A stretch of 64,000 nucleotides of DNA from a bacterium (GTDB lineage: Bacteria > Bacillota_I > Bacilli_A > RFN20 > CAG-826). Shown piece after piece: positions 19,694 to 38,537 of the stretch. How positions within the stretch are numbered: position 1 is the first letter of the stretch; each line of letters starts with the position of its first letter. Below the pieces are notes generated by a model that worked only from the letters and a program-made list of their open reading frames with translations, did not search any database and had not been told where the DNA came from. The stretch lies in assembly GCA_963638555.1 (NCBI GenBank), contig CAVHQU010000004.1, positions 65,993 through 129,992 of the forward strand, read 5' to 3'. A program made the position numbers and the translations under genes.

Positions 19694-20911
19694 ATGGCAA
19701 AAGAGAAATTCAACCGTGACCGCACCCACGTTAACGTTGGTACAATCGGCCACATCGACCATGGTAAGACAACCTTATCAGCCGCAATCATGCACGTTCT
19801 TAGCTTAGTTGGCAAAGAAACCAACGGTGCTGAAGGTAATGCAAAAGACGTCGGATACGCTGGTATCGACTCAACACCAGAAGAAAGAGCTCGTGGTATC
19901 ACGATCAACTCTGCTCACGAAGAATACGAAACAAAGACACGTCACTATGCCCACGTCGACTGCCCAGGGCACGCTGACTACATCAAGAACATGATTACCG
20001 GTGCCGCTCAAATGGATGCCGCTATCCTTGTTGTTGCTGCAACTGATGGCGTTATGCCACAAACACGTGAACACGTCCTTCTTGCTCGTCAAGTCGGTGT
20101 TCCAGCAATCATCGTCTTCCTTAACAAATGTGATATGGTCGACGATCCAGAATTAGTCGACTTAGTCGAAATGGACGTTCGTGATCTTCTCACATCCTAT
20201 GGATTCCCAGGAGATACTCTCCCAGTCGTCCGTGGCTCTGCTTTAAAAGCTGGCCAAGTCACTTCCAGCAAAGATGCTGATGCAGCTTGCGTTCTCGAAT
20301 TACTCCACCAACTCGATACATATATCCCAGATCCAGTCCGTTCTGATGATAAGCCATTCTTAATGCCTATCGAAGACGTTATGACAATCTCTGGTCGTGG
20401 TACAGTCGTTACTGGCCGTGTCGAACGTGGCGTTGCAAAGATGAATGACGAAGCCGAAATCGTCGGTATCCGTCCAACGATCAAGACAGTTATTACTGGT
20501 CTTGAAATGTTCCGTAAGACACTTGATTTCGTTGAATCTGGCGATAACGCTGGTGTTCTTCTCCGTGGTGTCACACGTGACCAAGTCGAACGTGGTCAAG
20601 TTCTTGCTAAACCAGGATCTATCGTTCCACACGACAAATTCACAGCTACAGTTTACGTCCTTACAAAAGAAGAAGGCGGCCGTCACACAGGCTTCTTAAA
20701 AGGCTATCGTCCACAATTCTTCTTCCGTACAACTGATATCACTGGTACAATCGACCTCCCAGCCGATGTCGAAATGGTTATGCCAGGTGACCACGTTACA
20801 TTCACAGTTAGCTTAATCCACCCAGTTGCTCTTGAAGCTGGTACAAAATTCTCTATCCGTGAAGGTGGCAAAACTGTCGGTTCCGGACAAGTCGTCGACA
20901 TTCTTCACTAA
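19694..20911 (+). CDS. tuf: Elongation factor Tu
   Basis: GHIDHGKTT motif. 405 aa. RBS GGAGGA. Confidence 0.97.
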
Positions 20912-20943
20912 TTCTTATTAGTTGAATATCAAACGATAAAATT

Positions 20944-20975
20944 AGCCCTTGCTTAAGCAGGGGCTTTTTTGTTTC
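20944..20975 (+). terminator. Rho-independent terminator after tuf
   Basis: AGCCCTTGC-ttaa-GCAGGGGCT hairpin followed by TTTTTT. Confidence 0.6.
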
Positions 20976-21041
20976 TAAAGATTAATTAAACTTTAAAATT
21001 ATTTCTTTCAATATTTTTCTAGATACCATATATTTAATGCC

Positions 21042-22355
21042 ATGGAAGAAAAAGAATTATTAAAACAACCGCCAGTGTCTAAGAGAGCTCTCTCTTTTAT
21101 TATTGATTTTGTCCTGGCATTTATTATCGGAAATATCTTGAATAGTTTCGTTACTAGCACTTATTTGTTTAAAGCAATGGGAGGAAATGATTATCAGCAA
21201 GATTATTATTCGTTTGCGGCTGATTCAGGTTTGGTAAACTCAACGAAAAACGATGACGGTTCTATTAAAACAATCTATTTATATGCATATGCTCCGGATG
21301 GAAAAGAAAATACAACTTTGCAATATGTTGCAACTCCTAATGGCGAATTCGCATATGAAGCGTATTTAAATATTGTTTGGAATTATTATACCTCTTTCTA
21401 TCCGACTGATTCCCGTATGGTTCAACCTGATGGATATACGTATAAACAAGATGAGTTAGATGATTACAAAAAATATGTTTATACAGAAGTTTTCCTTCTT
21501 CCTGATCCAACAACAATTGAAGGAAAAACCGACGTTACTTTAACATCAAGTGATTCTACCCAAACATATTTCCAATATGCCACAAATGAAGATGGGACAC
21601 CTAATTTAACTGTTATGCCAGTTTTGACAGATTCAACTAAGAAAGATTTAGAAGATTCTACAAAAAAAACTGCTACGTTAACAAACCTTCGCGATTATTT
21701 TATTGGAATTAGTGAATCATCAAATTCAATTTCAATATCTGGGACTGGTATTTATTACAAAGCTGCTCTCCATATGGAAGGGCAATCTGGATCAAACCAA
21801 ACTTACTTTACAAATATTTACACAAAAGTAACTTGGATTAGTTGGGAATGCTCCCTTGTTGCCTTATTGCCAATCTATTTCATACTCTTCTATTTGATAC
21901 CTGTATGCGATAAAAAAGGCAGAAGCATTGGCAAATACATCTTTGGTTTAGCCGTAGTGAATAAAGACGGAACATATATGAAAGCGTGGCAAAGATTCCT
22001 TAGACCTCTCTTCTTGTTACTTATTTGCGCTTGCACCTTGATTCCTAATAACGCTATAAGCATTCTTGTGTTTGGCATCGTCTGCTTGCTTGACTTTGGC
22101 TTCGTGGCCTTTGGAAAAACGTGTCAATCATTGCATGATAAGATTTTCAAAACGAATGTTGTTGCAAACAAAAAATCCATCATTTTCAAAACATTGGACG
22201 AGAAACAATCGTATTTAGCAGAAGAAGAAAAGAAAGCCGAAATAAAACCAGCAAGAGTTCCATCAACTGGAAATATGATTGATTTATCAGTTCATGATGA
22301 GCCGACTGAAGAAACCTCTAACGAAGAATCATCTGAAACAAAGAAAGAAGACTAA
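21042..22355 (+). CDS. RDD-family membrane protein with a ~230-aa extracytoplasmic insert and an acidic C-terminal tail
   Basis: RDD signatures: RxxA..IDxxL at the N-terminus (KRALSFIIDFVL), GRSIGKYIFGLAVV, and C-terminal QSLHDKIFKTNVV. A long Ser/Thr/Asn/Tyr-rich loop lies between TM1 and TM2. Confidence 0.75.
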   Translation: MEEKELLKQPPVSKRALSFIIDFVLAFIIGNILNSFVTSTYLFKAMGGNDYQQDYYSFAADSGLVNSTKNDDGSIKTIYLYAYAPDGKENTTLQYVATPNGEFAYEAYLNIVWNYYTSFYPTDSRMVQPDGYTYKQDELDDYKKYVYTEVFLLPDPTTIEGKTDVTLTSSDSTQTYFQYATNEDGTPNLTVMPVLTDSTKKDLEDSTKKTATLTNLRDYFIGISESSNSISISGTGIYYKAALHMEGQSGSNQTYFTNIYTKVTWISWECSLVALLPIYFILFYLIPVCDKKGRSIGKYIFGLAVVNKDGTYMKAWQRFLRPLFLLLICACTLIPNNAISILVFGIVCLLDFGFVAFGKTCQSLHDKIFKTNVVANKKSIIFKTLDEKQSYLAEEEKKAEIKPARVPSTGNMIDLSVHDEPTEETSNEESSETKKED

Positions 22356-22372
22356 CCTACGTGGTTAGTCTT
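22348..22372. terminator. Bidirectional hairpin terminator between convergent genes
   Basis: AAGACTAACC...GGTTAGTCTT followed by TTTTTT. It spans the stop codons of both the RDD gene and the minus-strand HTH gene. Confidence 0.4.
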
Positions 22373-22591
22373 TTTTAAATAATATATGTTCTCTTTCCTG
22401 TTGTAGTAGAGTTCATCTTCTGAATGAGTTTTCTTTAGATATAACCTGATACTTGAAATATAACGCTTGAATGAAACCTCATTGATTAGACATCTTTCCA
22501 TGATATCTTTCTTTGTGATTATTTCTCCATCAATCAATTTCTTGTATATATAGAGAACAGTATCGATTTTGCTAAAAACTCTCTTTTTCAT
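22352..22591 (-). CDS. Small stand-alone winged-HTH protein (resembles a DeoR/WYL-type N-terminal HTH)
   Basis: 79 aa. TVLYIYKKLIDGEIITKKDIMERCLINEVSFKRYISSIRLYL looks like an HTH_11-type DNA-binding domain. Transcribed divergently from the large OB-fold lipoprotein gene. Confidence 0.45.
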   Translation of the reverse strand: MKKRVFSKIDTVLYIYKKLIDGEIITKKDIMERCLINEVSFKRYISSIRLYLKKTHSEDELYYNRKENIYYLKKTNHVG

Positions 22592-22816
22592 CTACTTAGA
22601 TTTTAACAATGTTCAAATCTTTTTACAATTTTTCAAATTCTTTAGTATTCCTAAGTTATTTTTCTTGCTAGAATATCTCTTGGGAAAACGCTTTCCCAGC
22701 AAAATAACAAACGACACCCCCGTTTCCTGAAGGAAAAGAAAAATTAAAACGTTTCGCTACTTTTTGTTGACGTTCCGGGTGTTTTTCATTTTTGTTGGAA
22801 TAGAAAGGGTTATTTA

Positions 22817-24937
22817 ATGAAAACAAAAAAACTTTGCCTATTAGCTTTAGGCAGCATTCTTATGCTTGGAAGCTGTGGAGAAAACAATTCATCAGTTAAT
22901 GAGTCTTCTTCAGTTGCATCTTCAGAATCATCATCTGTTTCTTCTGAAATCTCCTCTCAAACTTCAAGCAGCCAATCTTCCTCATACGACTTTGACTACG
23001 ATTTAACGACAATCGCAGAAGCAATCGAAATTGCTAAGCAAAACTCAACTACCACAACAACACGTTATTACATCTTTGGCACAATCACGGCTATCTCAAA
23101 TTACACATATGGCCAAATGACGATTAAAGATGATACGGGTTCTATTGAAGCATATGGCACATATTCAGCTGATGGCGTTAGCCGTTATTCCGAATTAGAA
23201 AACAAACCACAAGTTGGTGATATGGTCGTTCTTTATGCCAATCTCAATAATTATAAAGACACTCCACAAATCTACTCTGGATGGATTGTTTGGCAAAAAA
23301 GCGTCGAAAAAGAATTTGATGAGAGCGACTATTCTGCAAAAACAATTGCTGAAGCAAGAGAAATGACGACTGGTTCCCTAGTTAAGGTCACAGGTGTCGT
23401 TACGAGAAAAACATATGCTAATGGCATGGTTGAATCTGGATTCTATGTTATCGATGAAACATCATCAATCTACATTCATTCATCTGCAGCCGCTTCTCAA
23501 GTAAGCGAAGGCAATAAAATCACAGTTTGTGGCGCTCTTGATTTTTGGATTCTTGATTCCGAAAAGACAAGTGCTGCTAAAGCTGGCTATCAAGGATCTT
23601 GCCAATTGTCAGACGTTACAATCACGCAAAATGATAAATTAACTACAAATACCTATGATAAATCTTGGATTGAAGAAACGACAATCAAAGATATCATGGA
23701 CACACCTGCAACAAAGAATATTACCAATAAAGTCTATAAGGTTAATTCTTATGTCAAGAAAGTTGCAGGTACGGGTTTTACAAACTATTATTTCGATGAT
23801 ATTGATGGAACAACTGGTTCTTACACATACACACAATGTAACGGATCTGATTTCTCTTGGTTAGATGCGTTTGATGGAAAGATTTGCACAGTTTACTTAA
23901 CTGCAATCAATGCCAAATGCAATGCTGCTGGTGCAGTATGGCGTTTCATGCCAATCGAAGTCATTGATGAAGACTACACCTTTGATGCAGCAAACGTTAA
24001 TGAATATGTTTGGACATATCACGTTAAAGATTTATTCAGAGAACTTTATACTGGTGATCCAGTCCTTGAAGTTCCAACAAGCGTTTCCTCTGAATTATTA
24101 GGATTCAGCGGCGCTACGATTACCTATACTTCAAGCAACACAAATGTTGCCACATTTGAAACTGAAGAAGGAAAGACAATCTTCCATATCAAAGGCGTTG
24201 CAGGAGATTCTACAATCACAGTTAATATTGATTATGGTACAAATGCCACTTTAACAAAGACATTCACCGTTGCTTATTCAGAAGCTACATATGATGATGC
24301 AATAACAGTTAAAGAAGCAATTGATGCAGAAAATGGCGAAGAAATTACCGTTAAAGGCGTTGCTGGTCCATCTCTAGTTAATCAAGATGGTTTCTATCTC
24401 ATCGATGAAACAGGCGTTATTGCGGTTAAGACGACATCTGATGCTTTAGCTGAAATCTCCTTAGGAAATGAAGTTGTTTTCAAAGGAACCAAGAAAGAAG
24501 GATATGGTATTAAAGAAGGATCAACGTCTGCTGGGCAATCCTGTTTGTTAGACTCTTCTCTTGTTGCTAACTTATACGGTAAGCACGAATATTCTAGAGA
24601 TACATTCATCACTGGAAAAACTCTTGCTGATATCTACAATTTAGATGCAACAGTTGATCATTCTACTGAAGTTTATACAGTTACCGCTAAGATTCAAAAG
24701 ACTGAAACGACATACTATTCACAAATCGCACTTGTTGATGGTGACACAAAACTTTCTCTTTATTGTTCTAGCGCAAACCAATATAACTGGTTAGCAAACG
24801 CCTTTGCTGAAGGAAGCGAAGTTACTTTAGACATTGCTCCATGCAATTGGAATAGCAAGAAGTTTTGGACTGGTTGCGTTCTTTCTGCAAGCGATGGTAC
24901 AACAAGAGTCGATAATACTCTTAATTACAGCAAATAA
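22817..24937 (+). CDS. Surface lipoprotein with four OB-fold-like modules and one Big_2 Ig-like domain
   Basis: Lipobox LMLGSCGEN followed by a Ser-rich linker. The TIAEA...VKVTGVV...GFYVIDETSSIYI motif recurs four times, resembling the nucleic-acid-binding OB folds of extracellular nucleases. A Big_2 block (TITYTSSNTNVATFE...) is also present. Confidence 0.75.
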   Translation: MKTKKLCLLALGSILMLGSCGENNSSVNESSSVASSESSSVSSEISSQTSSSQSSSYDFDYDLTTIAEAIEIAKQNSTTTTTRYYIFGTITAISNYTYGQMTIKDDTGSIEAYGTYSADGVSRYSELENKPQVGDMVVLYANLNNYKDTPQIYSGWIVWQKSVEKEFDESDYSAKTIAEAREMTTGSLVKVTGVVTRKTYANGMVESGFYVIDETSSIYIHSSAAASQVSEGNKITVCGALDFWILDSEKTSAAKAGYQGSCQLSDVTITQNDKLTTNTYDKSWIEETTIKDIMDTPATKNITNKVYKVNSYVKKVAGTGFTNYYFDDIDGTTGSYTYTQCNGSDFSWLDAFDGKICTVYLTAINAKCNAAGAVWRFMPIEVIDEDYTFDAANVNEYVWTYHVKDLFRELYTGDPVLEVPTSVSSELLGFSGATITYTSSNTNVATFETEEGKTIFHIKGVAGDSTITVNIDYGTNATLTKTFTVAYSEATYDDAITVKEAIDAENGEEITVKGVAGPSLVNQDGFYLIDETGVIAVKTTSDALAEISLGNEVVFKGTKKEGYGIKEGSTSAGQSCLLDSSLVANLYGKHEYSRDTFITGKTLADIYNLDATVDHSTEVYTVTAKIQKTETTYYSQIALVDGDTKLSLYCSSANQYNWLANAFAEGSEVTLDIAPCNWNSKKFWTGCVLSASDGTTRVDNTLNYSK

Positions 24938-24949
24938 TTCATCAATGTT

Positions 24950-24980
24950 AGACGGGGCTAGAAATAGCCTCGTTTTTCTT
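24950..24980 (+). terminator. Hairpin plus U-tract after the OB-fold lipoprotein gene
   Basis: ACGGGGCT-agaaat-AGCCTCGT followed by TTTTTC. Confidence 0.4.
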
Positions 24981-25015
24981 TTGAGTATTTGAATATTTTA
25001 TTTATAATAAAAACC

Positions 25016-26200
25016 ATGCCAAAAGATTATGTCGAAAAAGTAGAAAATAGAACTGATGAGAATGGCGTATTAATCGTTAGAGGCTCACCTTTAAGAAGAA
25101 TCCTTGCTGAGTTGGCCGATATCTTAACCGCCTTTATTTTAGCAATCACGATTTATGGCGTTGGCTTCCAAAAGCTTTTCGGCTATGACTATTACTCTAA
25201 TCAGATGTCGAATGTTTCATCGCAAATGGTTTCCTGCATGGTTGATAAAAATCTGTATAAGCAAAGCAACAATGGTTCAACTCTTCTTAAAGCGGATCTT
25301 TTTGAATATTGGTCTTATTATTACCTTTCAAAAACGAATGATGCCTATGTCGGAAAAGAAATATATGAGCCAATTAAAGATTATTACACCCTAAGCAGAG
25401 TTGGCTCTTCCAATATGAGCCAGTTCCAATTCAATACTGAGATTCTTAAATTACCTTCAACGATAGATGGTTCATATGAAAATACGGTATTCATGTATGA
25501 TTCTAACGTTAAGGACCCTCTAAATTCTGAGCCTATATTCAATTTAGATATTCAAACAAATCTTAATAAATATTATTTAGGAAACACTGATGCATATGAG
25601 CCAAAGAATGCCTATGATACGATGTCAACTTTCTTCACCAATGCATATGATGTCGCCTTTTCCGAAGCGGTCAAGGATGAGACGTATAAGAATTTGGTTT
25701 TAGAATTTGCATCAAATATGTGGACGCGTTCTTATTTGCAATCGGCCGCCATACTTTCTTCATATTTGCTTGGTGCTATTATAACTTTCTTGCTTGTTCC
25801 ATTAATTCAATTGAGCGGCTTAACTTTAGGCAAAAGAGTTGCTAAGCTTCAAGTTAACGATATCAAGGGAGAAAAACCGCATTGGTACTCTTTCCTGATT
25901 AGAGGCTTGGTTCAAATAATATGTTATTGTTTCATGATACCTTTTATTGGCGTAATGTCATATGGATTCGGCGCTTTTGAAATGCCGTTATTGGAAATTG
26001 GCTCCTTTAGCTTGAATTTATCTACATTTGCCATCGTTGGTCTATTATTGGCCGTGGCTTCTTTAATTATGCTATTTGTTACCCCAGGAAAACAATCGTT
26101 GCATGATTTAGCTTCATTGACATACGTAAATACGTCCGATATTAAAAAGATTCGTGATGAAGAAGCGAAATTAGAGAAAAAAGAAGATGGAAGAGACTAA
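25016..26200 (+). CDS. RDD-family membrane protein with a large extracytoplasmic insert (second paralog)
   Basis: RDD signatures LRRILAELADIL, GLTLGKRVAKLQV and QSLHDLASLTYV. The ORF track begins at a TTG at 24989. The first ATG is 27 nt downstream. The start is uncertain. Confidence 0.7.
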   Translation: MPKDYVEKVENRTDENGVLIVRGSPLRRILAELADILTAFILAITIYGVGFQKLFGYDYYSNQMSNVSSQMVSCMVDKNLYKQSNNGSTLLKADLFEYWSYYYLSKTNDAYVGKEIYEPIKDYYTLSRVGSSNMSQFQFNTEILKLPSTIDGSYENTVFMYDSNVKDPLNSEPIFNLDIQTNLNKYYLGNTDAYEPKNAYDTMSTFFTNAYDVAFSEAVKDETYKNLVLEFASNMWTRSYLQSAAILSSYLLGAIITFLLVPLIQLSGLTLGKRVAKLQVNDIKGEKPHWYSFLIRGLVQIICYCFMIPFIGVMSYGFGAFEMPLLEIGSFSLNLSTFAIVGLLLAVASLIMLFVTPGKQSLHDLASLTYVNTSDIKKIRDEEAKLEKKEDGRD

Positions 26201-27245
26201 GGAAAAGAAAACATTGGAATATTTCAAAGCACCATTTGGCAAAAGGATGGTTGCCATCATAATGGAAATATTGATGCTCGCCTTTGGCACGTTTGCCTTT
26301 CTTTTTTGCTCACGTTTGATCGTGGAACAGATGCCATTATACACTGATTCATTTAATATTTATGTGCAAATTTCCAAAGATTCAGGCTTATACGTATGCG
26401 ATGAATCTACTGAAAACAACCTCGTTACGTTAACTGAATATTATGGCAGCAAGACCTATGAAGTTCAAAATAACACAATAGAGGAAGCCTTAACGAAGTT
26501 TTATACCCTTGAAGAATTTTTTTCACAAGATCCATCTAACGAAAATTACGGCCCAAATATTTATTACAAACAAAAAATAGGCGAGACATGTATTACTTCT
26601 GATGACGGAAACAAGTATTTCATGCTTGACGCAAGTGGTACACCCCAAAAGAATCCATCTCTTACCGAAGTGAAGATGAACTCATTTTATTTAACTGCAT
26701 ATGACAAAGCTGTCGCCTATATTCAAAATAACGAAAATTACCTTCAAGCGAGAAATGTTTTAACGATATACATCAACCTTGTTTTGATACCTCTCTCCAT
26801 TACTTTGTCGTTCTTGGTTTTTGAATTGCTGATTCCTATGACCATTGGAAGAAGAGGCAAACAGACTCTTTCTATGAAATGCATGAAACTCTCTTTGCTT
26901 TCCTCTAACGCTCTTTCTTGCACGGCTAAAAGATATCTTGGAAGGCAAATGATTCAATTGTTCTTGATTGTTTTGCTTTCGCTAGTCTCTTTTGGCATAC
27001 CTCTAATCGTTTCATTCTCGATGATGATATTTAGAAAAGATGGTCAATGTCTTCATGATTACCTTGCTGGTACCTATATGGTTGATTCGTCTGAGCAATC
27101 TGTTTATTACACTTATCAAGAGATGGAAAAATTGCAGAAGAAAGCTGAGGATAGAGATAGCAATCCTCTATTGCCACCAAGAAAGGATGATAGAAGCGCC
27201 CCGCTTGGCAATGATTCCATTTGGCGTAATTTACGTGACAAGTAG
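26187..27245 (+). CDS. RDD-family membrane protein with a large extracytoplasmic insert (third paralog)
   Basis: RDD signatures FGKRMVAIIMEIL, GRRGKQTLSMKCM and GQCLHDYLAGTYMV. Overlaps the previous gene by 14 nt. Confidence 0.75.
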   Translation: MEETKEKKTLEYFKAPFGKRMVAIIMEILMLAFGTFAFLFCSRLIVEQMPLYTDSFNIYVQISKDSGLYVCDESTENNLVTLTEYYGSKTYEVQNNTIEEALTKFYTLEEFFSQDPSNENYGPNIYYKQKIGETCITSDDGNKYFMLDASGTPQKNPSLTEVKMNSFYLTAYDKAVAYIQNNENYLQARNVLTIYINLVLIPLSITLSFLVFELLIPMTIGRRGKQTLSMKCMKLSLLSSNALSCTAKRYLGRQMIQLFLIVLLSLVSFGIPLIVSFSMMIFRKDGQCLHDYLAGTYMVDSSEQSVYYTYQEMEKLQKKAEDRDSNPLLPPRKDDRSAPLGNDSIWRNLRDK

Positions 27246-27358
27246 TAATGTATTCGCTTACATTTTCGAAGAACTCTATTTGTAAAAAATAGTAGACTTG
27301 AATTAGAGCAAGTTTTCTCTTAAAATCAGTAATGCAAGATATATGATTGGAGACGCTC

Positions 27359-28516
27359 ATGGAGATTAGACTCAAAAATCTTACCAAATGCTTCCCAGGA
27401 AACCCAAAGAAGGGAATTCCTGATACTTATGCTGTGAAGTCTTTGGACGTTACAATCCCTGATGGGAAATTAGTTGGTCTTTTAGGTCCTTCTGGATGTG
27501 GCAAATCAACAACCCTTTACATGGTTGCTGGTCTTTTAGAACCTACTGAAGGCGAAATTTGGTTCGGTGATGAAGATGTTACCGATCTTGAACCAGAAAA
27601 GAGAGGAATTGGTTTAGTTTTCCAGAACTACGCTCTTTACCCTCATATGACCGTCTACAAGAATGTTGCTTTCCCTCTTACCAATCTTCGTATCGAAGAA
27701 AAAGTTTTAGATGATGATGGCAATGAAGTTTTTGATGAAACTGGAAAGCCATACATCAAAAAGAGAAAGCTCACGAAAGATGAGATTGACAAAGTCGTCC
27801 GTGAGACAGCCAAGATAGTTCAAATTGAAGAATATTTAGAAAGAAAACCAAATCAATTATCTGGTGGTCAACAACAGCGCGTTGCTATTGCTAGAGCCTT
27901 AGTAAAGAAACCTAAAGTTCTTTTACTTGATGAACCTCTTTCTAACTTAGATGCGCGTTTGAGACTCCAAACACGTGAAGAAATCAGAAGAATTCAACAA
28001 TCTACTGGAATTACCACAATATTCGTTACACACGACCAAGAAGAAGCGATGTCCATTTCTGATGAAATCGTTGTCATGAAGCTTGGCGTTGAACAACAAC
28101 GCGGTGTTCCACAAGACGTTTATAACAATCCTTGCAATAAATTCGTTGCAAATTTCTTAGGCACCCCACCAATTAACCTTTTCAAAGGCCGCATCCAAGG
28201 CAATAAGGTTTATATTGGTGATCAAGTCGTCCGTGAAATCACGGAAAAAGAAGTGCCTGATCAAGATTGCACAGTTGGCATCCGCCCAGAAGGTATTGTC
28301 GTTGATCCAAAAGGAACATTTACATTCAATTGTGAACGCATCCTAACAATGGGCCGTGATATCATGCTCGCTTCTGAACACCCTGAAGCAGTTTCCAACA
28401 TCAAATTTGTCGTTGATGCTTTCGTTGAAGTCTCAACCGGCGAAGTTCATGCTTCTGTCAAACCTCATAAATGCTTTGCCTTCTCTCTTGAAGGAAATGA
28501 GGAGAGGATTATCTAA
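27359..28516 (+). CDS. CUT1-family ABC importer ATP-binding protein (MalK/UgpC/MsmX-like)
   Basis: Walker A GPSGCGKST, signature LSGGQQQRV, Walker B LLLDEP, and a C-terminal TOBE-like regulatory domain. About 35 extra residues follow the Q-loop. Start moved to ATG 27359 (MEIRLKNL). Confidence 0.9.
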   Translation: MEIRLKNLTKCFPGNPKKGIPDTYAVKSLDVTIPDGKLVGLLGPSGCGKSTTLYMVAGLLEPTEGEIWFGDEDVTDLEPEKRGIGLVFQNYALYPHMTVYKNVAFPLTNLRIEEKVLDDDGNEVFDETGKPYIKKRKLTKDEIDKVVRETAKIVQIEEYLERKPNQLSGGQQQRVAIARALVKKPKVLLLDEPLSNLDARLRLQTREEIRRIQQSTGITTIFVTHDQEEAMSISDEIVVMKLGVEQQRGVPQDVYNNPCNKFVANFLGTPPINLFKGRIQGNKVYIGDQVVREITEKEVPDQDCTVGIRPEGIVVDPKGTFTFNCERILTMGRDIMLASEHPEAVSNIKFVVDAFVEVSTGEVHASVKPHKCFAFSLEGNEERII

Positions 28517-28518
28517 GG

Positions 28519-29607
28519 ATGGAAAACTCTGTTACTAACACAAAGAAACCAAATTTCTTTTCCAAATTTTCCAAGCTCTTCAAAAGGAAAGAGAGAGTTT
28601 CCGCTGATGCAGGCGAAAGAAACAACTGGAAAGCATGGCTTTATCTTGCTCCAGTTATCATTCTTTTGGCTGTCTTCACTTTTTATCCATTAATTAATAC
28701 TATTGTCATTGCTTTTCTTAAAAACTATGACTATACAACACAAGCAAGCGATGGCTTCACTTTTGATAATTTCCTTACTGTCTTAACTTTAGCTGGTAAG
28801 GACGGTGCTCAAAACCTTGTTTATCGTTGGAATTGTTTCGATGTTAAAGGACTTCCTTATTACATTAATGAAGCTGGTCAACAAGTTCGTGTTTATTTCC
28901 AAACAGATGTCTTAACATACGCTTTGCCAAACACGATGCTTATCACATTCGTCACAGTTCCTGTTTCAATTATCATCGCTTTATTGATATCCGTTTGTTT
29001 GAATTCAATTAAAGCCTTCAAAAAGATATTTCAAACAATTTTCTTCGTTCCTTATGTCACTAATGCCATCGCCGTCGGCATGGTCTTCGCTGTTTTGTTT
29101 GATTCTCAAGGTATCTTGAACTTCATTTTCGGCTTAGGAAATCATAAATGGATCGATGGTGGCGCTACATGGGGTTCAGGTATGCTTGCCTTATGTATCT
29201 ACATTGTATGGCATGCCCTTCCTTATAAGATTCTTATCTTCTTATCAGCTCTTCAAAATATTGATAAACAATATTACGATGCTGCAAAAATCGACTGTGC
29301 AGGTAAATGGAAAACATTCTGGCACGTTACTGTTCCAATGCTTTCGCCTCAAATTCTTTATATCATGATCACATCTTTCATTGGATCATTTAAAGAATAT
29401 ACGTCGGTCGTTGGCTTATTTGGCTCACCTTCAACAGATGGCGGTTCAACTAAGAACATGTATACCATAGTTTATTACATCTACGAATGCTTAAGCGCCC
29501 CAACAACAGTTTCTAGAGGTGCTGCCGCAGCTGTCTTGCTCTTCATCATCATCATGATATTTACAGCAATTCAGTTCCAAGTTTCAAAGAGGAGGGTTCA
29601 CTATTAA
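28519..29607 (+). CDS. ABC importer permease (MalF/UgpA-like)
   Basis: Six or more TM helices and an EAA-loop region (DAAKIDCAGKWKTFWHVTVPML). Confidence 0.85.
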   Translation: MENSVTNTKKPNFFSKFSKLFKRKERVSADAGERNNWKAWLYLAPVIILLAVFTFYPLINTIVIAFLKNYDYTTQASDGFTFDNFLTVLTLAGKDGAQNLVYRWNCFDVKGLPYYINEAGQQVRVYFQTDVLTYALPNTMLITFVTVPVSIIIALLISVCLNSIKAFKKIFQTIFFVPYVTNAIAVGMVFAVLFDSQGILNFIFGLGNHKWIDGGATWGSGMLALCIYIVWHALPYKILIFLSALQNIDKQYYDAAKIDCAGKWKTFWHVTVPMLSPQILYIMITSFIGSFKEYTSVVGLFGSPSTDGGSTKNMYTIVYYIYECLSAPTTVSRGAAAAVLLFIIIMIFTAIQFQVSKRRVHY

Positions 29608-29608
29608 T

Positions 29609-30658
29609 ATGGAATACGATTCAAGAAATTTCATTCAAAAACTCTTCAAAATGAAATCACGCGAAGAAAAACAAGCAGAAAGAGAAGCATCTGAAGAGTA
29701 TCAAGCAATTGACACTTCAAGTATGACCCTTGTTATCAAAGAAGGGCATGCAAACGCCGCTCAGCTTCAGAAAGCACAAAAAGCGGGACGTATAATCACC
29801 TCAATAATCACATACGCCTTCCTGCTTTTCATGAGCGTTATTATTCTCTTCCCTTTCTATTGGATGATTATTACCTCTTTAAAGAGCACAACAGAAATTC
29901 GTGCTACAACGCAGACTTTCTTCCCTGCAACGGTTCTTTGGACAAACTACATCACTGTTTTCAATACATTCGACTTTGTTACTTATGTTGGCAATACCTT
30001 AGTCGTTGGTATTATTTCTACAATCGGTACTTTGATTACGACGATTCTTGCCGCTTTCGCCTTTGCTAGACTTAATTTCAAAGGAAAAGATTTCATCTTT
30101 GCTATTCTTTTAGCAACAATGATGATTCCAGGTGAAATGATGGTTATTACGAACTACATCACTGTCGCTAAGTTGCCTTGGTATGAATTTGGCGTTGGAC
30201 AAGTAACTGGATGGCTAACATATAAAGATTCAGTTTTTGCTTCTATGATTGTTCCATTCTGGGTTTCTGTCTTCTATATTTACTTGTTAAGACAAAACTT
30301 TAAACAAATTCCTAACGAATTATACTTAGCCGCCAAAGTCGATGGTAAATCGGATTGGCAATTCTTATGGCATGTCATGGTCCCTCTTGCTATGCCAACC
30401 TTAATTTCAATCTTTATCCTTAAACTTATGGGTACTTGGAACTCATACGTATGGCCTCAACTCGTTACGGCAGGTAATGAATCTTGGAGACTTGTTACAA
30501 ATGGTCTTCGCTCATCCTTCTCAACGACATCTGGCGAACCACAATACGGCATTCAAATGGCTGCGACCATCCTTGTAACAGTTCCGTTACTTTTATTGTT
30601 TATTTTCTTCCGCAAGTATATTATGAAAGGCGTTGGCCGCGCTGGTATTAAGGGATAG
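29609..30658 (+). CDS. ABC importer permease (MalG/UgpE-like)
   Basis: EAA-loop region (LAAKVDGKSDWQFLWHVMVPLAMP). Starts 2 nt after the previous permease. Confidence 0.85.
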   Translation: MEYDSRNFIQKLFKMKSREEKQAEREASEEYQAIDTSSMTLVIKEGHANAAQLQKAQKAGRIITSIITYAFLLFMSVIILFPFYWMIITSLKSTTEIRATTQTFFPATVLWTNYITVFNTFDFVTYVGNTLVVGIISTIGTLITTILAAFAFARLNFKGKDFIFAILLATMMIPGEMMVITNYITVAKLPWYEFGVGQVTGWLTYKDSVFASMIVPFWVSVFYIYLLRQNFKQIPNELYLAAKVDGKSDWQFLWHVMVPLAMPTLISIFILKLMGTWNSYVWPQLVTAGNESWRLVTNGLRSSFSTTSGEPQYGIQMAATILVTVPLLLLFIFFRKYIMKGVGRAGIKG

Positions 30659-30724
30659 GCCTTCAAATTGGTTACAGTTCGTAAGAATGTAATATAAAAA
30701 TTAGATTAGAAAATGGAGAAAAAA

Positions 30725-32179
30725 ATGTCTAAGAAAAAATTATTAACTGGCGTACTTGCTGTCTTATCCGCCGCCTTCGTCGCAACTAGCTGTGGCGAAT
30801 CAAACGATAGTGGTAAAACATCGAGCGCTCAAGAATCATCTCAATCAGAACAAAACTCCTCAACAACAACAGATGGACTTGCTAAATTTGATGAACAAGT
30901 CGCTGCACTTGGAGATTTAAAACAACTCTCTTGTGAAGTTACATTCTGGCACACAATCGGAAAAACAAATCAAGAAACGCTTGATTCCATGATTACCGAA
31001 TTTAACAAAGTTTATCCAAACATCAAAATTACCCATTCCCAGCAAGGCGGATACGATGATGTTAAGAGTGCTGTTTCCAATGCTATTCCAGCTGGAACAA
31101 CTCCAACGATGACATATTGCTATCCTGATCATGTCGCCGATTATCTTCCATCTGATTCAGTTGTCAAACTTGATAACTATATGAATTCTTCCTTAATTGG
31201 CTTAGGCGTTGATAACGGTCTTGATGATAAAGGCGCATCCGATTTCATCCAAACATATCTTTCCGAAGGAAATAACTATACAGTCAATGGTAAAAAGGTT
31301 GAAGGCTACTATTCCATGCCTTTCTCCAAATCCACAGAAGTCCTTTTCTACAACAAAGACGTTTTCGAAGAAAATAGCTGGGAAGTCCCTCAAACATGGG
31401 ATCAAATGTGGACTCTTTGCAAAGAAGCAAAAGAAATCTATGGTGATAGCGTAATCCCTCTTGGATATGACTCTGATGCCAATTTCTTCATCACATATTG
31501 CGCACAAAATAATATTCCATATACAACAGGTGAAGGAAACGAACACTTCCTTTTCAATAACGATCAAGCAAAAGCCTTTGTTAACACAATCAAAGATTAT
31601 TCTTGCGTTACTGGCGGAAAAGGATACTGGACATCGCAAACACAATTAGGCTCTGGCACATATACATCAACAAAATTTACAAACCAAGAAGTCTTAATGT
31701 CTATCGGTTCAACGGGTGGCACAACATATAACGTTTCTAGCAATTTCGAAACTGGCGTTGCCGCCTTACCACAATCCGACTTAAACAATGGCAAAGTCAT
31801 CATGCAAGGACCTTCCATCTGCTTTATGTCTGATTCCTCTTTATCGCAAAGAGTTGGTGCTTGGTTATTCTACAAATACATCACCAACACCCATAACTCT
31901 GCTATTTGGTCTTCTATGACAGGTTATAACCCAGTTAGAACATCCTCATTCACCGATAGCGCTTATGCAACATCCAAATATTCTTTAGTCAACACTGTTC
32001 TTAATTTTGCAGGCACAGGATCTTCTTATGCAGATTGGTATTACACATCACCATCTTTCAAAGGATCGTCTGCTGCACGTTCAGAAATCACCAGCTTAAT
32101 GTCCGGTGTTTTGACTGGCACAAAGACAGTTGACCAAGCATTTGAAGACGCATATCAAAACTGCTTATTCGCAGCTTAA
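30725..32179 (+). CDS. ABC substrate-binding lipoprotein, CUT1 family (paralog A)
   Basis: Lipobox VATSCGES and a Ser-rich linker, then a type-2 periplasmic binding fold (VTFWHTIGK...). The ORF track starts at 30713. The ATG at 30725 sits downstream of GGAG. Confidence 0.8.
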   Translation: MSKKKLLTGVLAVLSAAFVATSCGESNDSGKTSSAQESSQSEQNSSTTTDGLAKFDEQVAALGDLKQLSCEVTFWHTIGKTNQETLDSMITEFNKVYPNIKITHSQQGGYDDVKSAVSNAIPAGTTPTMTYCYPDHVADYLPSDSVVKLDNYMNSSLIGLGVDNGLDDKGASDFIQTYLSEGNNYTVNGKKVEGYYSMPFSKSTEVLFYNKDVFEENSWEVPQTWDQMWTLCKEAKEIYGDSVIPLGYDSDANFFITYCAQNNIPYTTGEGNEHFLFNNDQAKAFVNTIKDYSCVTGGKGYWTSQTQLGSGTYTSTKFTNQEVLMSIGSTGGTTYNVSSNFETGVAALPQSDLNNGKVIMQGPSICFMSDSSLSQRVGAWLFYKYITNTHNSAIWSSMTGYNPVRTSSFTDSAYATSKYSLVNTVLNFAGTGSSYADWYYTSPSFKGSSAARSEITSLMSGVLTGTKTVDQAFEDAYQNCLFAA

Positions 32180-32253
32180 TCTTCTTACAACTTTATAGGC
32201 GGGAACTTTTTCTTCCCGCCTATCTTCCAATTTAGACGAGGAAAAATACGATT

Positions 32254-33651
32254 ATGAAAAAGAAAAATATAGCCATACTTATCACGGCAACTCTTCTATC
32301 GCTTGCTTCATGCGGAGGCTCCGATTCATCAGTTAATGGTTCTTCTAGCGCAAGTGAAGAAACTTCATCAAATAATGGTGATGAAAAAGTTACTGTAGAA
32401 TTTTGGCACACAATGGGTAAGGCCAACGCCGATATCCTTGATGGAATGATCAAGTCTTTTGAAGCTCAAAACCCAAATATCACCATTAAAGCAAGCTCAG
32501 CGGCTGGTGGATATGATGATTTAGAGGCTCTTATCCTTAAGAACATTGCTACAAGCACCTTACCAACGATGGCTTTCTGCTATCCAGACCACGTTGCTGA
32601 ATATCTTGAACGTGGCAATAACGGAGCCGTCACTGATTTGACTTCTTTCATCAACGATGCCGAAATCGGATTCACAAAAGAGGAAGGTTCCCATAAAGAT
32701 GAAGAGGGAAATGAAGTCTATGGCGCAGCCGATTATGTAGATACATTCTGGCAAGAAGGCTGCAATTATACAAAAGAAGGCGTCTATAGCGTTCCTTTCG
32801 CAAAATCAACCGAAGCCCTTTTCTATAACAAAGACGCTTTCGATGCCTATGGTTGGGAAGTTCCTCAAACATGGGATCAAATGTGGGCTCTTTGCGAAGA
32901 AATCAAAGAAATGGATATCGATGGAGTTACTGCTCCTTTAGGATATGATTCCGATTCCAATATGTTCATTTCCTTATGCCAACAACAGGGAATCCCTTAC
33001 ACAAGTGCAACAGGCAATCATTATTTATTCGATAATGATAAGGCTAAAGCAATGGTAAGCGATCTTAAAACTAAATATGATGAAGGATTGTTCATCACAA
33101 AAGGCTCTAGCAATAGCACATACACATCTACAAAATTCACAAACCAAGAGGTCTTGATGACGATTGGTTCAACTGGTGGCACCTCATATAACCAATCCGT
33201 CAACTTTGAAGTTGGCGTTGCTGAACCTCCAGCATACGACCTTTCTAATAAAGCCGTCGTTTCCCAAGGACCATCTATTTGTTTCTTCAATGCAAGTGCA
33301 TCTAAGGCCGCATCAAATGCTCAGCTTAGAGCCGCCTGGAAATTCTACAAATTCATCTCATCCGCTGAAAATAGCACACTCTATTCCGTTTCTACTGGTT
33401 ATCAACCGGTAAGAACTTCATCTTATGAGACTGAAACATATAAAACATTCTCTGCAGATACAACAAGCCTTATGAATAAGGTTGCTAAAGTGTCTTCCGG
33501 AATGCTTGATTCATATTTCAATTCACCTGTTTTCGTTGGCTCAGCTAACGCAAGAAATGAAGTTGGCTCTCTTTTGACTGCCGTCCTTCTTGGAACAAAA
33601 ACGGTTGACGATGCTTTCGAAAATGCAATTTCCAATTGCGTTAACTCATAA
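32254..33651 (+). CDS. ABC substrate-binding lipoprotein, CUT1 family (paralog B)
   Basis: Lipobox LASCGGS. Aligns with the upstream binding protein along its whole length (VEFWHTMGK..., FYNKDAF, PQTWDQMW, STKFTNQEVLM). Looks like a tandem duplication. Confidence 0.8.
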   Translation: MKKKNIAILITATLLSLASCGGSDSSVNGSSSASEETSSNNGDEKVTVEFWHTMGKANADILDGMIKSFEAQNPNITIKASSAAGGYDDLEALILKNIATSTLPTMAFCYPDHVAEYLERGNNGAVTDLTSFINDAEIGFTKEEGSHKDEEGNEVYGAADYVDTFWQEGCNYTKEGVYSVPFAKSTEALFYNKDAFDAYGWEVPQTWDQMWALCEEIKEMDIDGVTAPLGYDSDSNMFISLCQQQGIPYTSATGNHYLFDNDKAKAMVSDLKTKYDEGLFITKGSSNSTYTSTKFTNQEVLMTIGSTGGTSYNQSVNFEVGVAEPPAYDLSNKAVVSQGPSICFFNASASKAASNAQLRAAWKFYKFISSAENSTLYSVSTGYQPVRTSSYETETYKTFSADTTSLMNKVAKVSSGMLDSYFNSPVFVGSANARNEVGSLLTAVLLGTKTVDDAFENAISNCVNS

Positions 33652-33668
33652 TTTAGCGAGGTAAGAAT

Positions 33669-35174
33669 ATGAAAATGAAAAAGAAATTAATTGGTTGCTT
33701 GCTTTCAGGCCTCTTCCTTTGCTCGGTAGCATCCTGCGGTAGCAATGATTCTAGCAATACAGCCCCAAGTTCCGAAACCCAAACATCATCTAAAACTGAT
33801 GAAGTGGTTTCATCCAGCTCTGAGCAAACTCAATTCGTTGATTATACAGCCACAACAAAATTAACTTATGATTACACCGGTAAAGAATTCTTAAAAGATG
33901 GTATCGGTGAAGTTACATTGGTCACAAAAGTTGATGGCGATACAGCTCATTTCAAATCTAAAACAGGCTCTTCTGGCACAATCAAAGGCAGATACAACTG
34001 CATTGATACACCTGAATCCACAGGTATGATCGAGCCATGGGGCCATGGCGCATCAGAATACAATGGCAAACTTCTTTCTGAAGCAAAGCATATCGTTTTA
34101 ACCACAGATAAAGCAGATTCAACCTCTGGACCAGCTCTTGATTCCACTGGTGGAAGATATCTCGTATATGTTTGGGTTGCCAATGTTGAAAATCCAACAT
34201 TAGATGATTTTATCAATGTTAACCTTGCTATTTGCCAAGAAGGATATTCCAAAGCAAAAGGCGTTTCTGGAAAAGAATATGCCGATGCGTTCCTTAACGC
34301 TGATATCCAAGCAAAAGCCTTCCAACTTCATGTTTGGAGCGATGAACAAGACCCGGATTATAACTATTCTGATCCAGTCAAGATTGACTTACGCATGATT
34401 GTCGAAGGATTTGATTCTGAAGGTAATGAATACGACTGGGTTGGTTCAAAAGTAACATTCAACGCTTATGTTGCAGGTGTTGGCCCTGATGCTGGCGCCG
34501 CATATGTCTGCGATGATGTCACATGGACCGACACAGATGGAGAACATACTCAAAGATATGGTATGTATATCTTCACGCAATATATTGTTTATGCTCCATT
34601 ACAAACAATTGGAAACTACCTTGAAATTTCAGGTACGGTTTCCGAATACAACGGAACATTACAAGTCGTAGATGTCTCTTATTCACCATATTATCCAGAT
34701 GATTATGATATTAAAGTCATCTCAACTGGTCATACTGACAAAGTTCAACCATTCACTGGATCTGCTGGAACATTTGCATCAGACAAGTATGTCAACACGA
34801 TGGTAACAGTTGATCTTGTTTGCACAGGCGGGTATGCAACTCTTAATACTGCAACATCCACTGCATATGCTTTCACTTTATATTGCCATGATAAAAACAA
34901 TACTTCAGAACAATTAAATATCCGTATTGCTGATTCAATCGCTATCAACTATCCAGGTACATTATCTCGTATCCAAGATTGTATCCCATTCTGGAAAGGT
35001 GAAAAATCCATTGCCGAAGCACTTAATAATGGCAAGAACACCGATTCTAGAAAGGTTGAATACATAACAATTACCGGAGCCGTAGTCAAATATGTCACTA
35101 CATCTGGTAAGACCACATACCAGGTCAATCTTACAAAGAAAGCAGATTTGACCCTTCACATGAGTGAAGAATAA
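33669..35174 (+). CDS. Surface lipoprotein nuclease, staphylococcal-thermonuclease (SNase) family, with a C-terminal beta-rich extension
   Basis: Lipobox VASCGSN. SNase catalytic and Ca-binding core VDGDTAHF...GRYNCIDTPE...GGRYLVYVW...N..L...G.AK, ending ...DPDYNY. About 250 further residues follow. Confidence 0.8.
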   Translation: MKMKKKLIGCLLSGLFLCSVASCGSNDSSNTAPSSETQTSSKTDEVVSSSSEQTQFVDYTATTKLTYDYTGKEFLKDGIGEVTLVTKVDGDTAHFKSKTGSSGTIKGRYNCIDTPESTGMIEPWGHGASEYNGKLLSEAKHIVLTTDKADSTSGPALDSTGGRYLVYVWVANVENPTLDDFINVNLAICQEGYSKAKGVSGKEYADAFLNADIQAKAFQLHVWSDEQDPDYNYSDPVKIDLRMIVEGFDSEGNEYDWVGSKVTFNAYVAGVGPDAGAAYVCDDVTWTDTDGEHTQRYGMYIFTQYIVYAPLQTIGNYLEISGTVSEYNGTLQVVDVSYSPYYPDDYDIKVISTGHTDKVQPFTGSAGTFASDKYVNTMVTVDLVCTGGYATLNTATSTAYAFTLYCHDKNNTSEQLNIRIADSIAINYPGTLSRIQDCIPFWKGEKSIAEALNNGKNTDSRKVEYITITGAVVKYVTTSGKTTYQVNLTKKADLTLHMSEE

Positions 35175-35207
35175 TTAGGTTTTATCTTCAGGAAGGAGAA
35201 ATTATAA

Positions 35208-37598: not shown

Positions 37599-37615
37599 TC
37601 GCATCTAATCATCTT

Positions 37616-37645
37616 AGCCCTTTCTTAACTGAAAGGGCTTTTTCA
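37616..37645 (+). terminator. Rho-independent terminator
   Basis: AGCCCTTTC-ttaact-GAAAGGGCT followed by TTTTT. Confidence 0.55.
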
Positions 37646-37712
37646 TATATAAAATATATGAGTAGATACTCTTGTTGTTGAAAAATCTTCTCTATTTCAT
37701 TAAACTTTTCTT

Positions 37713-38537
37713 ATGAATAAGATAGTGAAAACATTAATAATTCCATTCTCAATCCTAACTTTAGTTGGATGTAATGGAACTACTGCATCGGAAACATCCG
37801 ATAACTCTTCTACGGAAGTCTCTTCTAGCGTTGAAGGAAATAACAATTTAAGCATAGCCCTTGACTGGTTCATTGGTAGCGTCAATACGGTTGCGGCTTA
37901 TAATTTCTTTGATGCAACAGCAAAGCCAAGAGCAACATCAGTTTTCTTGGAAGATGGTTGCTACACTACATATCGTAATTTTACAAACCTCGAAAATACT
38001 GGTTTGATCAACATCTCCTCCGCTTTAGCGACCAAATATGGTCTTGAAGAAGGAGTCTATTCTTGGACTAAGGAAAATTCCTCTTTAGCCATTGGAAGCA
38101 AAGTTGGTGAAGGAACATATCAAGATCTTTATCACTATCCAATGGAGATTGCCGTAAACAAAACAGATTACATTCACTCTTTTCATCATGAATCTGAAAA
38201 CGAAAAAACAGACTCTAAAGCAGAAAACAAACTAACTGATTCCGCTAAGAGTTTATTAAATGGCTATTTCACATTAAATAAAATATTCAAAGACGAAGAT
38301 TCAGAAAAGATGCTTATGAGCTTTGCTAAATCATTAGGCGTTTATGAAATTCTTACTCAAGCCGATATGGAACTTAATTATGCAAAAATCTATTTCGGTC
38401 CAAGTGCTAATACTATGAATGTTACCTTCTATACTCAATATAGAGGAGGCTATTCTTCGTACGAAACAACCGTTACATGTTCTCAATTTGGCACAGCAAA
38501 GATTGCCGAATTAACATCTTACATTGAGGCTGAATGA
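37713..38537 (+). CDS. Lipoprotein of unknown function
   Basis: Lipobox LTLVGCNGT and a Ser-rich linker. 274 aa. ATGA overlap with the downstream nuclease gene. Confidence 0.6.
   Translation: MNKIVKTLIIPFSILTLVGCNGTTASETSDNSSTEVSSSVEGNNNLSIALDWFIGSVNTVAAYNFFDATAKPRATSVFLEDGCYTTYRNFTNLENTGLINISSALATKYGLEEGVYSWTKENSSLAIGSKVGEGTYQDLYHYPMEIAVNKTDYIHSFHHESENEKTDSKAENKLTDSAKSLLNGYFTLNKIFKDEDSEKMLMSFAKSLGVYEILTQADMELNYAKIYFGPSANTMNVTFYTQYRGGYSSYETTVTCSQFGTAKIAELTSYIEAE

Follow-up and report, generated by a model that had tools for sequence, protein, structure and literature searches.

RDD proteins form a very large membrane-protein family with no accepted function, and the locus described here raises the question of what three of them do beside an importer. 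In a 64,000-nucleotide stretch of contig CAVHQU010000004.1 (assembly GCA_963638555.1; the whole stretch is hereafter called the window), the genes that we name RDD1, RDD2 and RDD3 lie directly downstream of the str operon (rpsL, rpsG, fusA, tuf) and ahead of the genes for an ATP-binding cassette (ABC) importer, its binding lipoproteins and nuclease-domain proteins. We find that the three proteins are RDD family members split by a confidently predicted domain that probably lies outside the cell, and that RDD3 precedes the importer genes in every informative locus; from this we infer, tentatively, that the trio may serve the importer as accessory subunits at the cell surface.

A split, ectodomain-bearing RDD subfamily

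Profile scores and signature residues together place RDD1, RDD2 and RDD3 within the RDD family, as a split, ectodomain-bearing variant of it. The initial annotation had read three paralogous RDD proteins out of this region, and both the open reading frames (ORFs) and the family assignment hold: all three proteins exceed the gathering score of 24.1 bits of the Pfam RDD profile hidden Markov model (HMM; PF06271). That model is contiguous and has 137 positions, of which only positions ~37-137 align in each of the three proteins, because an insert parts the N-terminal R..D box from the remaining core. The compact, contiguous core of ~140 residues with adjacent first and second transmembrane helices (TM1 and TM2) is thus absent from RDD1-RDD3; an arginine at the N-terminal edge of TM1, an aspartate within TM1 and a second conserved aspartate late in the domain, in the His-Asp box, are all in place. 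With the central basic box included, the signature residues are R15, D22, G293..K298 and H365-D366 in RDD1, R37, D44, G277..K282 and H372-D373 in RDD2, and R20, E27, G224 and H290-D291 in RDD3, so the triad claimed for all three copies is present, with E27 of RDD3 standing for the TM1 aspartate. This is a conservative change, at a position that holds D in 39 and E in 10 of 50 homologues. The signature residues are retained in 80-97% of the members of each RDD lineage, and the late His-Asp box has D or E in 94-100%.

Hydropathy gives the order TM1, insert, TM2, a short basic loop and one or two more helices. AlphaFold2 models of RDD1 and RDD3 agree with this order and add a TM3-TM4 hairpin and a small beta sheet, built from the basic loop and the segment past the His-Asp box. 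The layout of RDD1 runs TM1, ectodomain, TM2, basic GxxxGK loop, TM3-TM4 hairpin, HD box and an acidic cytoplasmic tail, the last being the acidic C terminus that had been noted on one copy. Most RDD1 orthologues carry in this tail the conserved motif LDLSTINxxREEAxxITSFDEFEK (alignment columns ~440-490), which is reduced to IDLS and an acidic stretch in the window's clade (window 22200-22355). The insert after TM1 had been described as a hydrophilic, Ser/Thr/Asn/Tyr-rich segment of 200-250 aa; its composition fits (Ser/Thr/Asn/Tyr 36-40%; Phe/Trp/Tyr 14-18%), but the length applies to RDD1 only, the inserts of RDD2 and RDD3 being shorter (Table 1).

Charge bias puts the insert outside the cell, as had been suggested. 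When the 15-residue flanks were compared in 113 non-identical family members from related loci, Lys and Arg were biased to the N-terminus/loop-2 side over the insert side in 107, and every insert was net acidic (means of -10 to -12). By the positive-inside rule this bias places the insert outside and the R, D, GK and HD boxes all at the cytoplasmic face. This agrees with Aravind and colleagues, who describe a conserved binding site within the membrane part of RDD domains that is oriented toward the cytoplasm (PMC12419801).

Structure prediction, which the initial annotation had proposed for the inserts, gave confident models. Overall mean predicted local distance difference test (pLDDT) scores were 82 for RDD1 and 84 for RDD3, the inserts reached ~90 in both models and the RDD1 ectodomain ~90-97. 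Among orthologues, mean identity in the insert compared with the core was 0.58 versus 0.57 for RDD1, 0.56 versus 0.77 for RDD2 and 0.44 versus 0.58 for RDD3. This near-core conservation, taken with a pLDDT of ~90, argues that the inserts are a real, predicted folded domain and not a low-complexity linker.

The ectodomain is a new domain, without relatives in Pfam or solved structures. Scans of the three proteins against NCBIfam gave zero matches and against Pfam the RDD core alone, leaving the insert without any match in either library. A profile search of PDB sequences with RDD1 returned nothing at E <= 1; Foldseek searches of PDB folds with the RDD1 and RDD3 models gave no usable match (best E 0.22-0.29), nor did a search of BFVD with the RDD1 model (best E 0.49). 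Whether the inserts resemble the locus's own OB-fold lipoproteins or its binding proteins, as had been suggested, was checked with insert HMMs against all ORFs of the window and of 65 related loci, and these matched only RDD proteins.

The three inserts are nonetheless akin to each other. Pairwise identity among RDD1-RDD3 is ~26% and limited to the core, which also dominates full-length profile comparisons, and insert-only comparisons with narrow alignments were marginal (E = 0.007-0.065). With broad insert alignments built from the fetched loci (33 sequences for RDD1, 31 for RDD2 and 49 for RDD3), hhalign joined RDD1 to RDD2 (probability 90%, E = 1.7e-6 over 140 columns; reversed control E = 0.57) and RDD2 to RDD3 (E = 3.2e-4 over 132 columns; reversed control E = 0.44), while the direct comparison of RDD1 with RDD3 was insignificant (E = 0.06; reversed control E = 0.88), so that the kinship of these two inserts appears to be transitive, via RDD2. 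The alignments are collinear and have several motifs in common: SGL past helix 1 of the ectodomain, YY/FY..F in an aromatic helix and YF...G..P in strands. Predicted secondary structure follows a similar order in the inserts, with extra elements in RDD1. These profile comparisons indicate that the inserts are distant homologues, descended from one ancestral ectodomain-bearing RDD gene. RDD1, RDD2 and RDD3 each represent an old lineage of orthologues that has been conserved on its own, and the order of the three is fixed. We therefore do not retain the proposal of a diversified surface-exposed family, since three conserved lineages in fixed order are the pattern of subunits of one complex and not that of variable antigens.

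Distribution and a conserved place before the importer

Word-indexed searches found 24 proteins related to RDD1 (23 of them full-length homologues), 25 to RDD2 and 47 to RDD3, and an exhaustive search with an RDD3 profile returned 1732 cluster representatives at a cut-off of E <= 1e-3, of which 821 passed E <= 1e-10 and 241 passed E <= 1e-30. Among the best 150 of these clusters, 144 have lengths of 300-380 aa and align with the whole profile, including the insert; a few shorter ones match partly. Where the sources name the relatives at all, they are called 'RDD family protein' or 'YckC', and the named carriers are metagenome-assembled genomes (MAGs) of 'Bacilli bacterium', 'Mollicutes bacterium' and 'Candidatus Enteromonas sp.'. 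Scanning GTDB with RDD1 patterns yielded 15 species, among them 'uncultured Mollicutes bacterium UMGS237' and 'Bacillales bacterium UBA743/UBA4951/UBA6356', and the contig name of one carrier points to a human gut metagenome. As far as seen, then, the subfamily is large and confined to uncultured Bacilli/Mollicutes-like bacteria. Seven GTDB/ENA MAG records with this Bacilli-type locus (L007, L009, L011, L012, L015, L016 and L018 in our numbering of related loci) bear evidently wrong organism labels, these being Bacteroides uniformis, Sodaliphilus, Alistipes, Prevotella, Escherichia coli, Lachnospiraceae and Hallerella.

The strongest result concerns gene order. The 65 related loci, annotated with family HMMs, include 51 distinct RDD3 loci, 43 of which have at least 1.2 kb of downstream sequence and are informative for the importer link; in all 43, a UgpC/MalK-type ABC ATPase gene and then two permease genes follow RDD3 on the same strand. 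The link to an ABC importer that had been drawn from the window alone is therefore general, and the homologues, numerous as they are, keep strongly conserved neighbours. The ATPase gene directly adjoins RDD3 in 32 of the 43 loci, and in the other 11 a stretch of 1.6-3.3 kb intervenes, which holds an OB lipoprotein gene in three. In both loci inspected for it, which belong to distant relatives, the intervening stretch encodes a protein of ~500 aa that combines a lipobox and a large domain outside the cell with three TMs at the C terminus (L020 13896-15383; L061 3298-4839). This protein may be one more part of the cluster, specific to its lineage.

The order extends to both sides of this pair. 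An RDD paralogue stands immediately 5' of RDD3 in 40 of 42 loci, and a staphylococcal-nuclease (SNase) domain gene lies past the genes for the substrate-binding proteins (SBPs) in 14 of the 20 loci with at least 7.5 kb of downstream sequence, giving the usual order RDD1-RDD2-RDD3-ATPase-permease-permease-SBP(-SBP)-SNase(-OB/Big_2 protein). In the window's clade, RDD1 and RDD2 are parted by an OB lipoprotein gene and by a small ORF on the minus strand; the position of the OB gene is variable, and other loci have it past RDD3 or past the nuclease gene. The RDD-ABC pairing is kept at RDD3 identities down to 27%, in one locus whose tuf identity is as low as 80% (L020), and in loci away from tuf (L022, L026, L031 and L038). 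Inherited gene order beside the str operon is insufficient to account for a pairing that holds at 27% identity and away from tuf.

Importer, nucleases and expression signals

The genes past the RDD array (Table 1) look like a surface nucleic-acid scavenging and uptake system, judged by their families. The best PDB sequence matches of both binding proteins are the 7c0f-7c19 series (E = 2e-21 and 9e-17), followed by UgpB. This series is probably the dinucleotide (U3G)-binding protein of Thermus thermophilus, reportedly described by Chandravanshi et al. in 2021. Staphylococcal nuclease releases 3'-mononucleotides and dinucleotides. The branch of Carbohydrate Uptake Transporter-1 (CUT1) that holds UgpB binds phosphodiesters, including a dinucleotide, and its dinucleotide binder stands beside UgpB and a glycerophosphocholine binder (PMC12718374). 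Mycoplasmas co-transcribe the gene of an SNase lipoprotein with those of a binding lipoprotein and a sugar-type ABC importer, and import of nucleic-acid precursors has been proposed for this system (PMC3585158). The UgpB-like, phosphodiester-type binding proteins of the window hint that its importer may take up nucleic-acid breakdown products; a glycerophosphodiester might also be its substrate.

The nucleotide-binding domain of the ABC ATPase has an insertion of variable length, which breaks the Pfam ABC_tran match in two; the total length, 385 aa here, reaches 649 aa in relatives (for example L020 15402-17351). The part of the window from 33669 to 39754 is rich in nucleases, with two SNase proteins around the protein with Big_2 domains and a weak OB match.

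Table 1 Features of the RDD-importer region, in window coordinates
Feature	Coordinates	Strand	Details
Terminator-like hairpin past tuf	20944-20965	+	9-bp stem, 6 G-C pairs, then T run
RDD1	21042-22355	+	437 aa; Pfam RDD 61.6 bits, E = 1e-16
RDD1 ectodomain (residues 44-262)	21171-21827	+	219 aa; mixed alpha/beta, acidic, aromatic-rich
Palindromic hairpin at end of RDD1	22348-22372	.	T runs on both sides
Conserved 79-aa ORF	22352-22591	-	unknown family; tblastn 34-64% identity in 20 related loci
OB-fold lipoprotein	22817-24937	+	706 aa; weak Pfam matches: tRNA_anti-codon OB, BOF
Terminator-like hairpin past OB lipoprotein gene	24950-24975	+	11-bp stem, then T run
Promoter-like TTGAGT-16-TATAAT	24981-25008	+	consensus match only; ends 7 nt 5' of RDD2 ATG
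RDD2	25016-26200	+	394 aa; Pfam RDD 53.7 bits, E = 3.5e-14
RDD2 ectodomain	25178-25738	+	~187 aa
RDD3	26187-27245	+	352 aa; Pfam RDD 35.8 bits, E = 1e-8
RDD3 ectodomain	26316-26762	+	~149 aa; shortest version of the domain
Promoter-like TTGAAT-17-TAAAAT	27298-27326	+	RDD3-ATPase spacer; hexamers conserved in 8 relatives
ABC ATPase, UgpC/MalK type	27359-28516	+	385 aa
Two BPD_transp_1 permeases	28519-30658	+
Two substrate-binding lipoproteins, UgpB-like branch of CUT1	30713-33651	+	Pfam SBP_bac_8, SBP_bac_1
Lipoprotein with staphylococcal-nuclease domain	33669-35174	+	Pfam SNase, E = 1e-9
Protein with Big_2 domains and weak OB-fold match	35208-37598	+	796 aa
Second SNase-domain protein	38534-39754	+	with lamin-tail domain

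Two of the RDD genes had been described as translationally coupled to the importer, and one part of that description stands. RDD2 and RDD3 overlap by 14 nt (26187-26200) and are coupled to each other. The ATPase gene is not coupled to them, because a spacer of 113 nt separates the RDD3 stop from its likely ATG start at 27359, which lies behind a GGAG (the listed ORF begins at TTG 27347). Likewise, RDD2 is listed from TTG 24989 (403 aa), and orthologue alignment and the public gene call argue for the ATG at 25016 (MPKDY...) as its start. The same spacing recurs in gene-called loci, where neighbouring RDD genes overlap or are at most 50 nt apart and a gap of 100-175 nt always stands 5' of the ATPase gene.

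The hairpin past tuf, a putative terminator, sets RDD1 apart from the str operon, and the palindromic hairpin at the end of RDD1 probably terminates transcription from both directions, that of RDD1 as well as that of the small ORF convergent with it. Past the OB lipoprotein gene, the promoter-like element before RDD2 follows directly on a terminator-like hairpin, and the RDD2-RDD3 mRNA may be leaderless or nearly so. Between RDD3 and the ATPase gene the window has no terminator-like hairpin; this spacer (27246-27358) has a near-palindrome, ATGTATTCGCTTACAT, just 3' of the RDD3 stop and present in several relatives. The spacer may combine a promoter and an operator for the importer genes. It is without a known riboswitch or leader, since an Rfam scan of 20900-27500 gave nothing near threshold.

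The minus-strand 79-aa ORF adjoins RDD1 in all 20 related loci with tblastn matches and, in L022 and L024, precedes the RDD1-RDD2-RDD3 array and is read away from it, a layout in keeping with a possible local regulator. Profile searches of Pfam and the PDB assigned it to no family reliably; the hints they gave, to an Mga-type HTH, were weak and came from 2 of 10 members.

A possible accessory role, its rivals and its precedents

The reading we hold, tentatively and somewhat short of calling it probable, is that the RDD trio would form a hetero-oligomeric accessory surface platform of a nuclease-fed importer. Three RDD proteins co-produced from overlapping or abutting frames would assemble into one hetero-oligomeric membrane complex, and its partner machinery would be the UgpB/CUT1-type ABC importer with its lipoprotein binding proteins, the SNase lipoproteins and the OB-fold lipoproteins. 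The nucleases would degrade nucleic acid outside the cell to short phosphodiesters, which the importer would take up; the RDD ectodomains would act as a membrane-surface platform, holding or organising lipoprotein partners or substrate over the permease, and the RDD cores would anchor this platform and could couple it to the cytoplasmic side. We infer that the three are subunits of one complex from their ancient paralogy, fixed order, overlapping frames, kept signature residues and conserved ectodomains, and their physical or functional coupling to the importer from the fact that RDD genes invariably precede it; the pairs SppI-SppA and Mam1B/Mas1B-Mce1, described below, are precedents for an RDD protein as the partner of a larger machine.

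Several points weigh against such a platform. The conserved promoter-like element in the RDD3-ATPase spacer and, in the window, the two terminator-like hairpins that flank RDD1 mean that co-transcription with the importer is not assured. Nuclease-ABC operons of mycoplasmas, as described, work without RDD proteins (PMC3585158), so the trio is not a general requirement of this type of importer. The acidic ectodomains (about -10 to -12) disfavour simple electrostatic binding of nucleic acid, and the conserved polar site of RDD proteins faces the cytoplasm (PMC12419801), which hints at a role of its own beyond that of a mere anchor. We are correspondingly more cautious about a stronger form of the proposal, in which the trio would be an obligatory heterotrimeric surface component of a nuclease-fed oligonucleotide/dinucleotide importer and a new class of accessory subunit; this we consider doubtful. 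Were it true, it would yield, together with SppI-SppA and Mam1B-Mce1, a first general rule for the family, with RDD cores as coupling or anchoring subunits and not as transporters.

It is unlikely, in our judgement, that the trio is instead a transporter or channel working parallel to the ABC system within a shared scavenging regulon, moving for example an ion, a nucleoside or a base by way of the Arg/Asp site. Pfam originally suggested transport for the family, and the report of Na+(Li+,K+)/H+ antiport by an RDD protein of Halobacillus (PMC5996927) is the main support for this view, to which the conservation of the R/D/HD residues in all three lineages and the separate promoter-like element before the ATPase gene would lend themselves; but SppI has no salt or pH phenotype in Bacillus subtilis (PMC7568657), each protein has only 3-4 membrane helices, and transport would leave the large conserved ectodomain unexplained.

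A sensory or regulatory role, in which the ectodomains would detect nucleic acid, its products or loaded binding proteins and the cores would gate the importer or another enzyme, strikes us as about equally improbable. It could draw on SppI, an RDD protein that regulates a partner membrane enzyme (PMC7568657), on the frequent fusion of RDD domains to signalling modules and the cytoplasmic orientation of their binding site (PMC12419801), on the conserved cytoplasmic tail motif of RDD1 orthologues and on the conserved 79-aa ORF, the possible regulator beside the array. However, family scans found no kinase, cyclase or DNA-binding output domain fused or adjacent, the 79-aa ORF has no recognisable DNA-binding family, and three paralogues in fixed order would be unusual for a sensor. 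That the adjacency is meaningless, with unrelated membrane proteins kept near the importer by inherited order beside the str operon, is very improbable: the tuf-RDD-ABC order is common to many loci and all carriers come from one broad group of uncultured Bacilli/Mollicutes-like bacteria, but the link survives away from tuf and across the divergence described above, and the OB lipoprotein and the ~500-aa membrane protein come and go while the RDD-ABC pairing stays.

The subfamily gives the RDD family an unusually clear handle: its partner system, a nuclease-linked ABC importer, is conserved, its paralogues come in a fixed stoichiometry of three, and its outside domain is soluble and is folded with confidence in the models. 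An accessory platform would bear on how surface nuclease digestion is coupled to the uptake of its products in mollicute-like bacteria, and the carriers are abundant uncultured gut bacteria with reduced genomes, probably dependent on scavenged nucleotides.

In the literature that mentions the RDD family or domain we found no description of a split, ectodomain-bearing RDD subfamily or of an RDD-ABC-nuclease association, and known systems resemble the locus in part. Canonical RDD proteins (PF06271; YckC, YczC and YxaI of B. subtilis) share with RDD1-RDD3 the membrane core, the Arg before and the Asp within TM1, the basic loop and the late His-Asp, whereas the window proteins have a folded ectodomain of 150-220 aa between TM1 and the remaining core, and paralogues of their type form a fixed array of three tied to an ABC importer. 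The Halobacillus andaensis RDD protein reported as a Na+(Li+,K+)/H+ antiporter (PMC5996927) belongs to the same Pfam family and has the same conserved Arg/Asp, but it is compact, lacks an ectodomain and adjoins sppA, and its activity could not be reproduced with its close relative SppI (PMC7568657).

Closer in kind are RDD proteins with a partner. SppI (YteJ) of B. subtilis inhibits the protease SppA, to which it is joined in a membrane complex (PMC7568657), and it is, like the proteins here, encoded beside a membrane machine; unlike them, it has its extra domain at the C terminus, exists as a single copy and has a protease for its partner. Mam1B/Mas1B, an Mce-associated membrane protein of the mycobacterial mce operons, combines an RDD membrane segment with an extracytoplasmic domain and is encoded with paralogous accessory proteins beside an ABC-type importer, and Mce importer function depends on such accessory proteins (PMC1810536; bioRxiv 10.1101/2025.03.26.645568). 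In Mam1B, however, the outside domain follows the RDD segment and is not inserted within it, and Mam1B is the partner of the Mce lipid importer, in contrast to the binding-protein-dependent CUT1 importer of the window, whose neighbouring genes encode BPD_transp_1 permeases, SBP_bac_1/8 proteins and a UgpC/MalK-type ATPase and not YrbE/Mce proteins. The Pfam scan, in which RDD alone matched, detected no sequence similarity of the ectodomain to the extracytoplasmic Mas domain of Mam1B, and the searches of PDB sequences and folds gave no match of any kind.

The partner machinery itself is most like that of mycoplasmas, where MAG_5040 with MAG_5050-5070, and mhp379, join an SNase lipoprotein, a sugar-type binding lipoprotein, an ATPase and two permeases in one conserved cluster (PMC3585158). 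The window has the same arrangement, its SNase lipoprotein gene adjoining those for the ATPase, the two permeases and a sugar-type binding lipoprotein (27359-35174). As described there, the mycoplasma operons hold no RDD gene, whereas here two or three ectodomain-bearing RDD genes always stand 5' of the importer.

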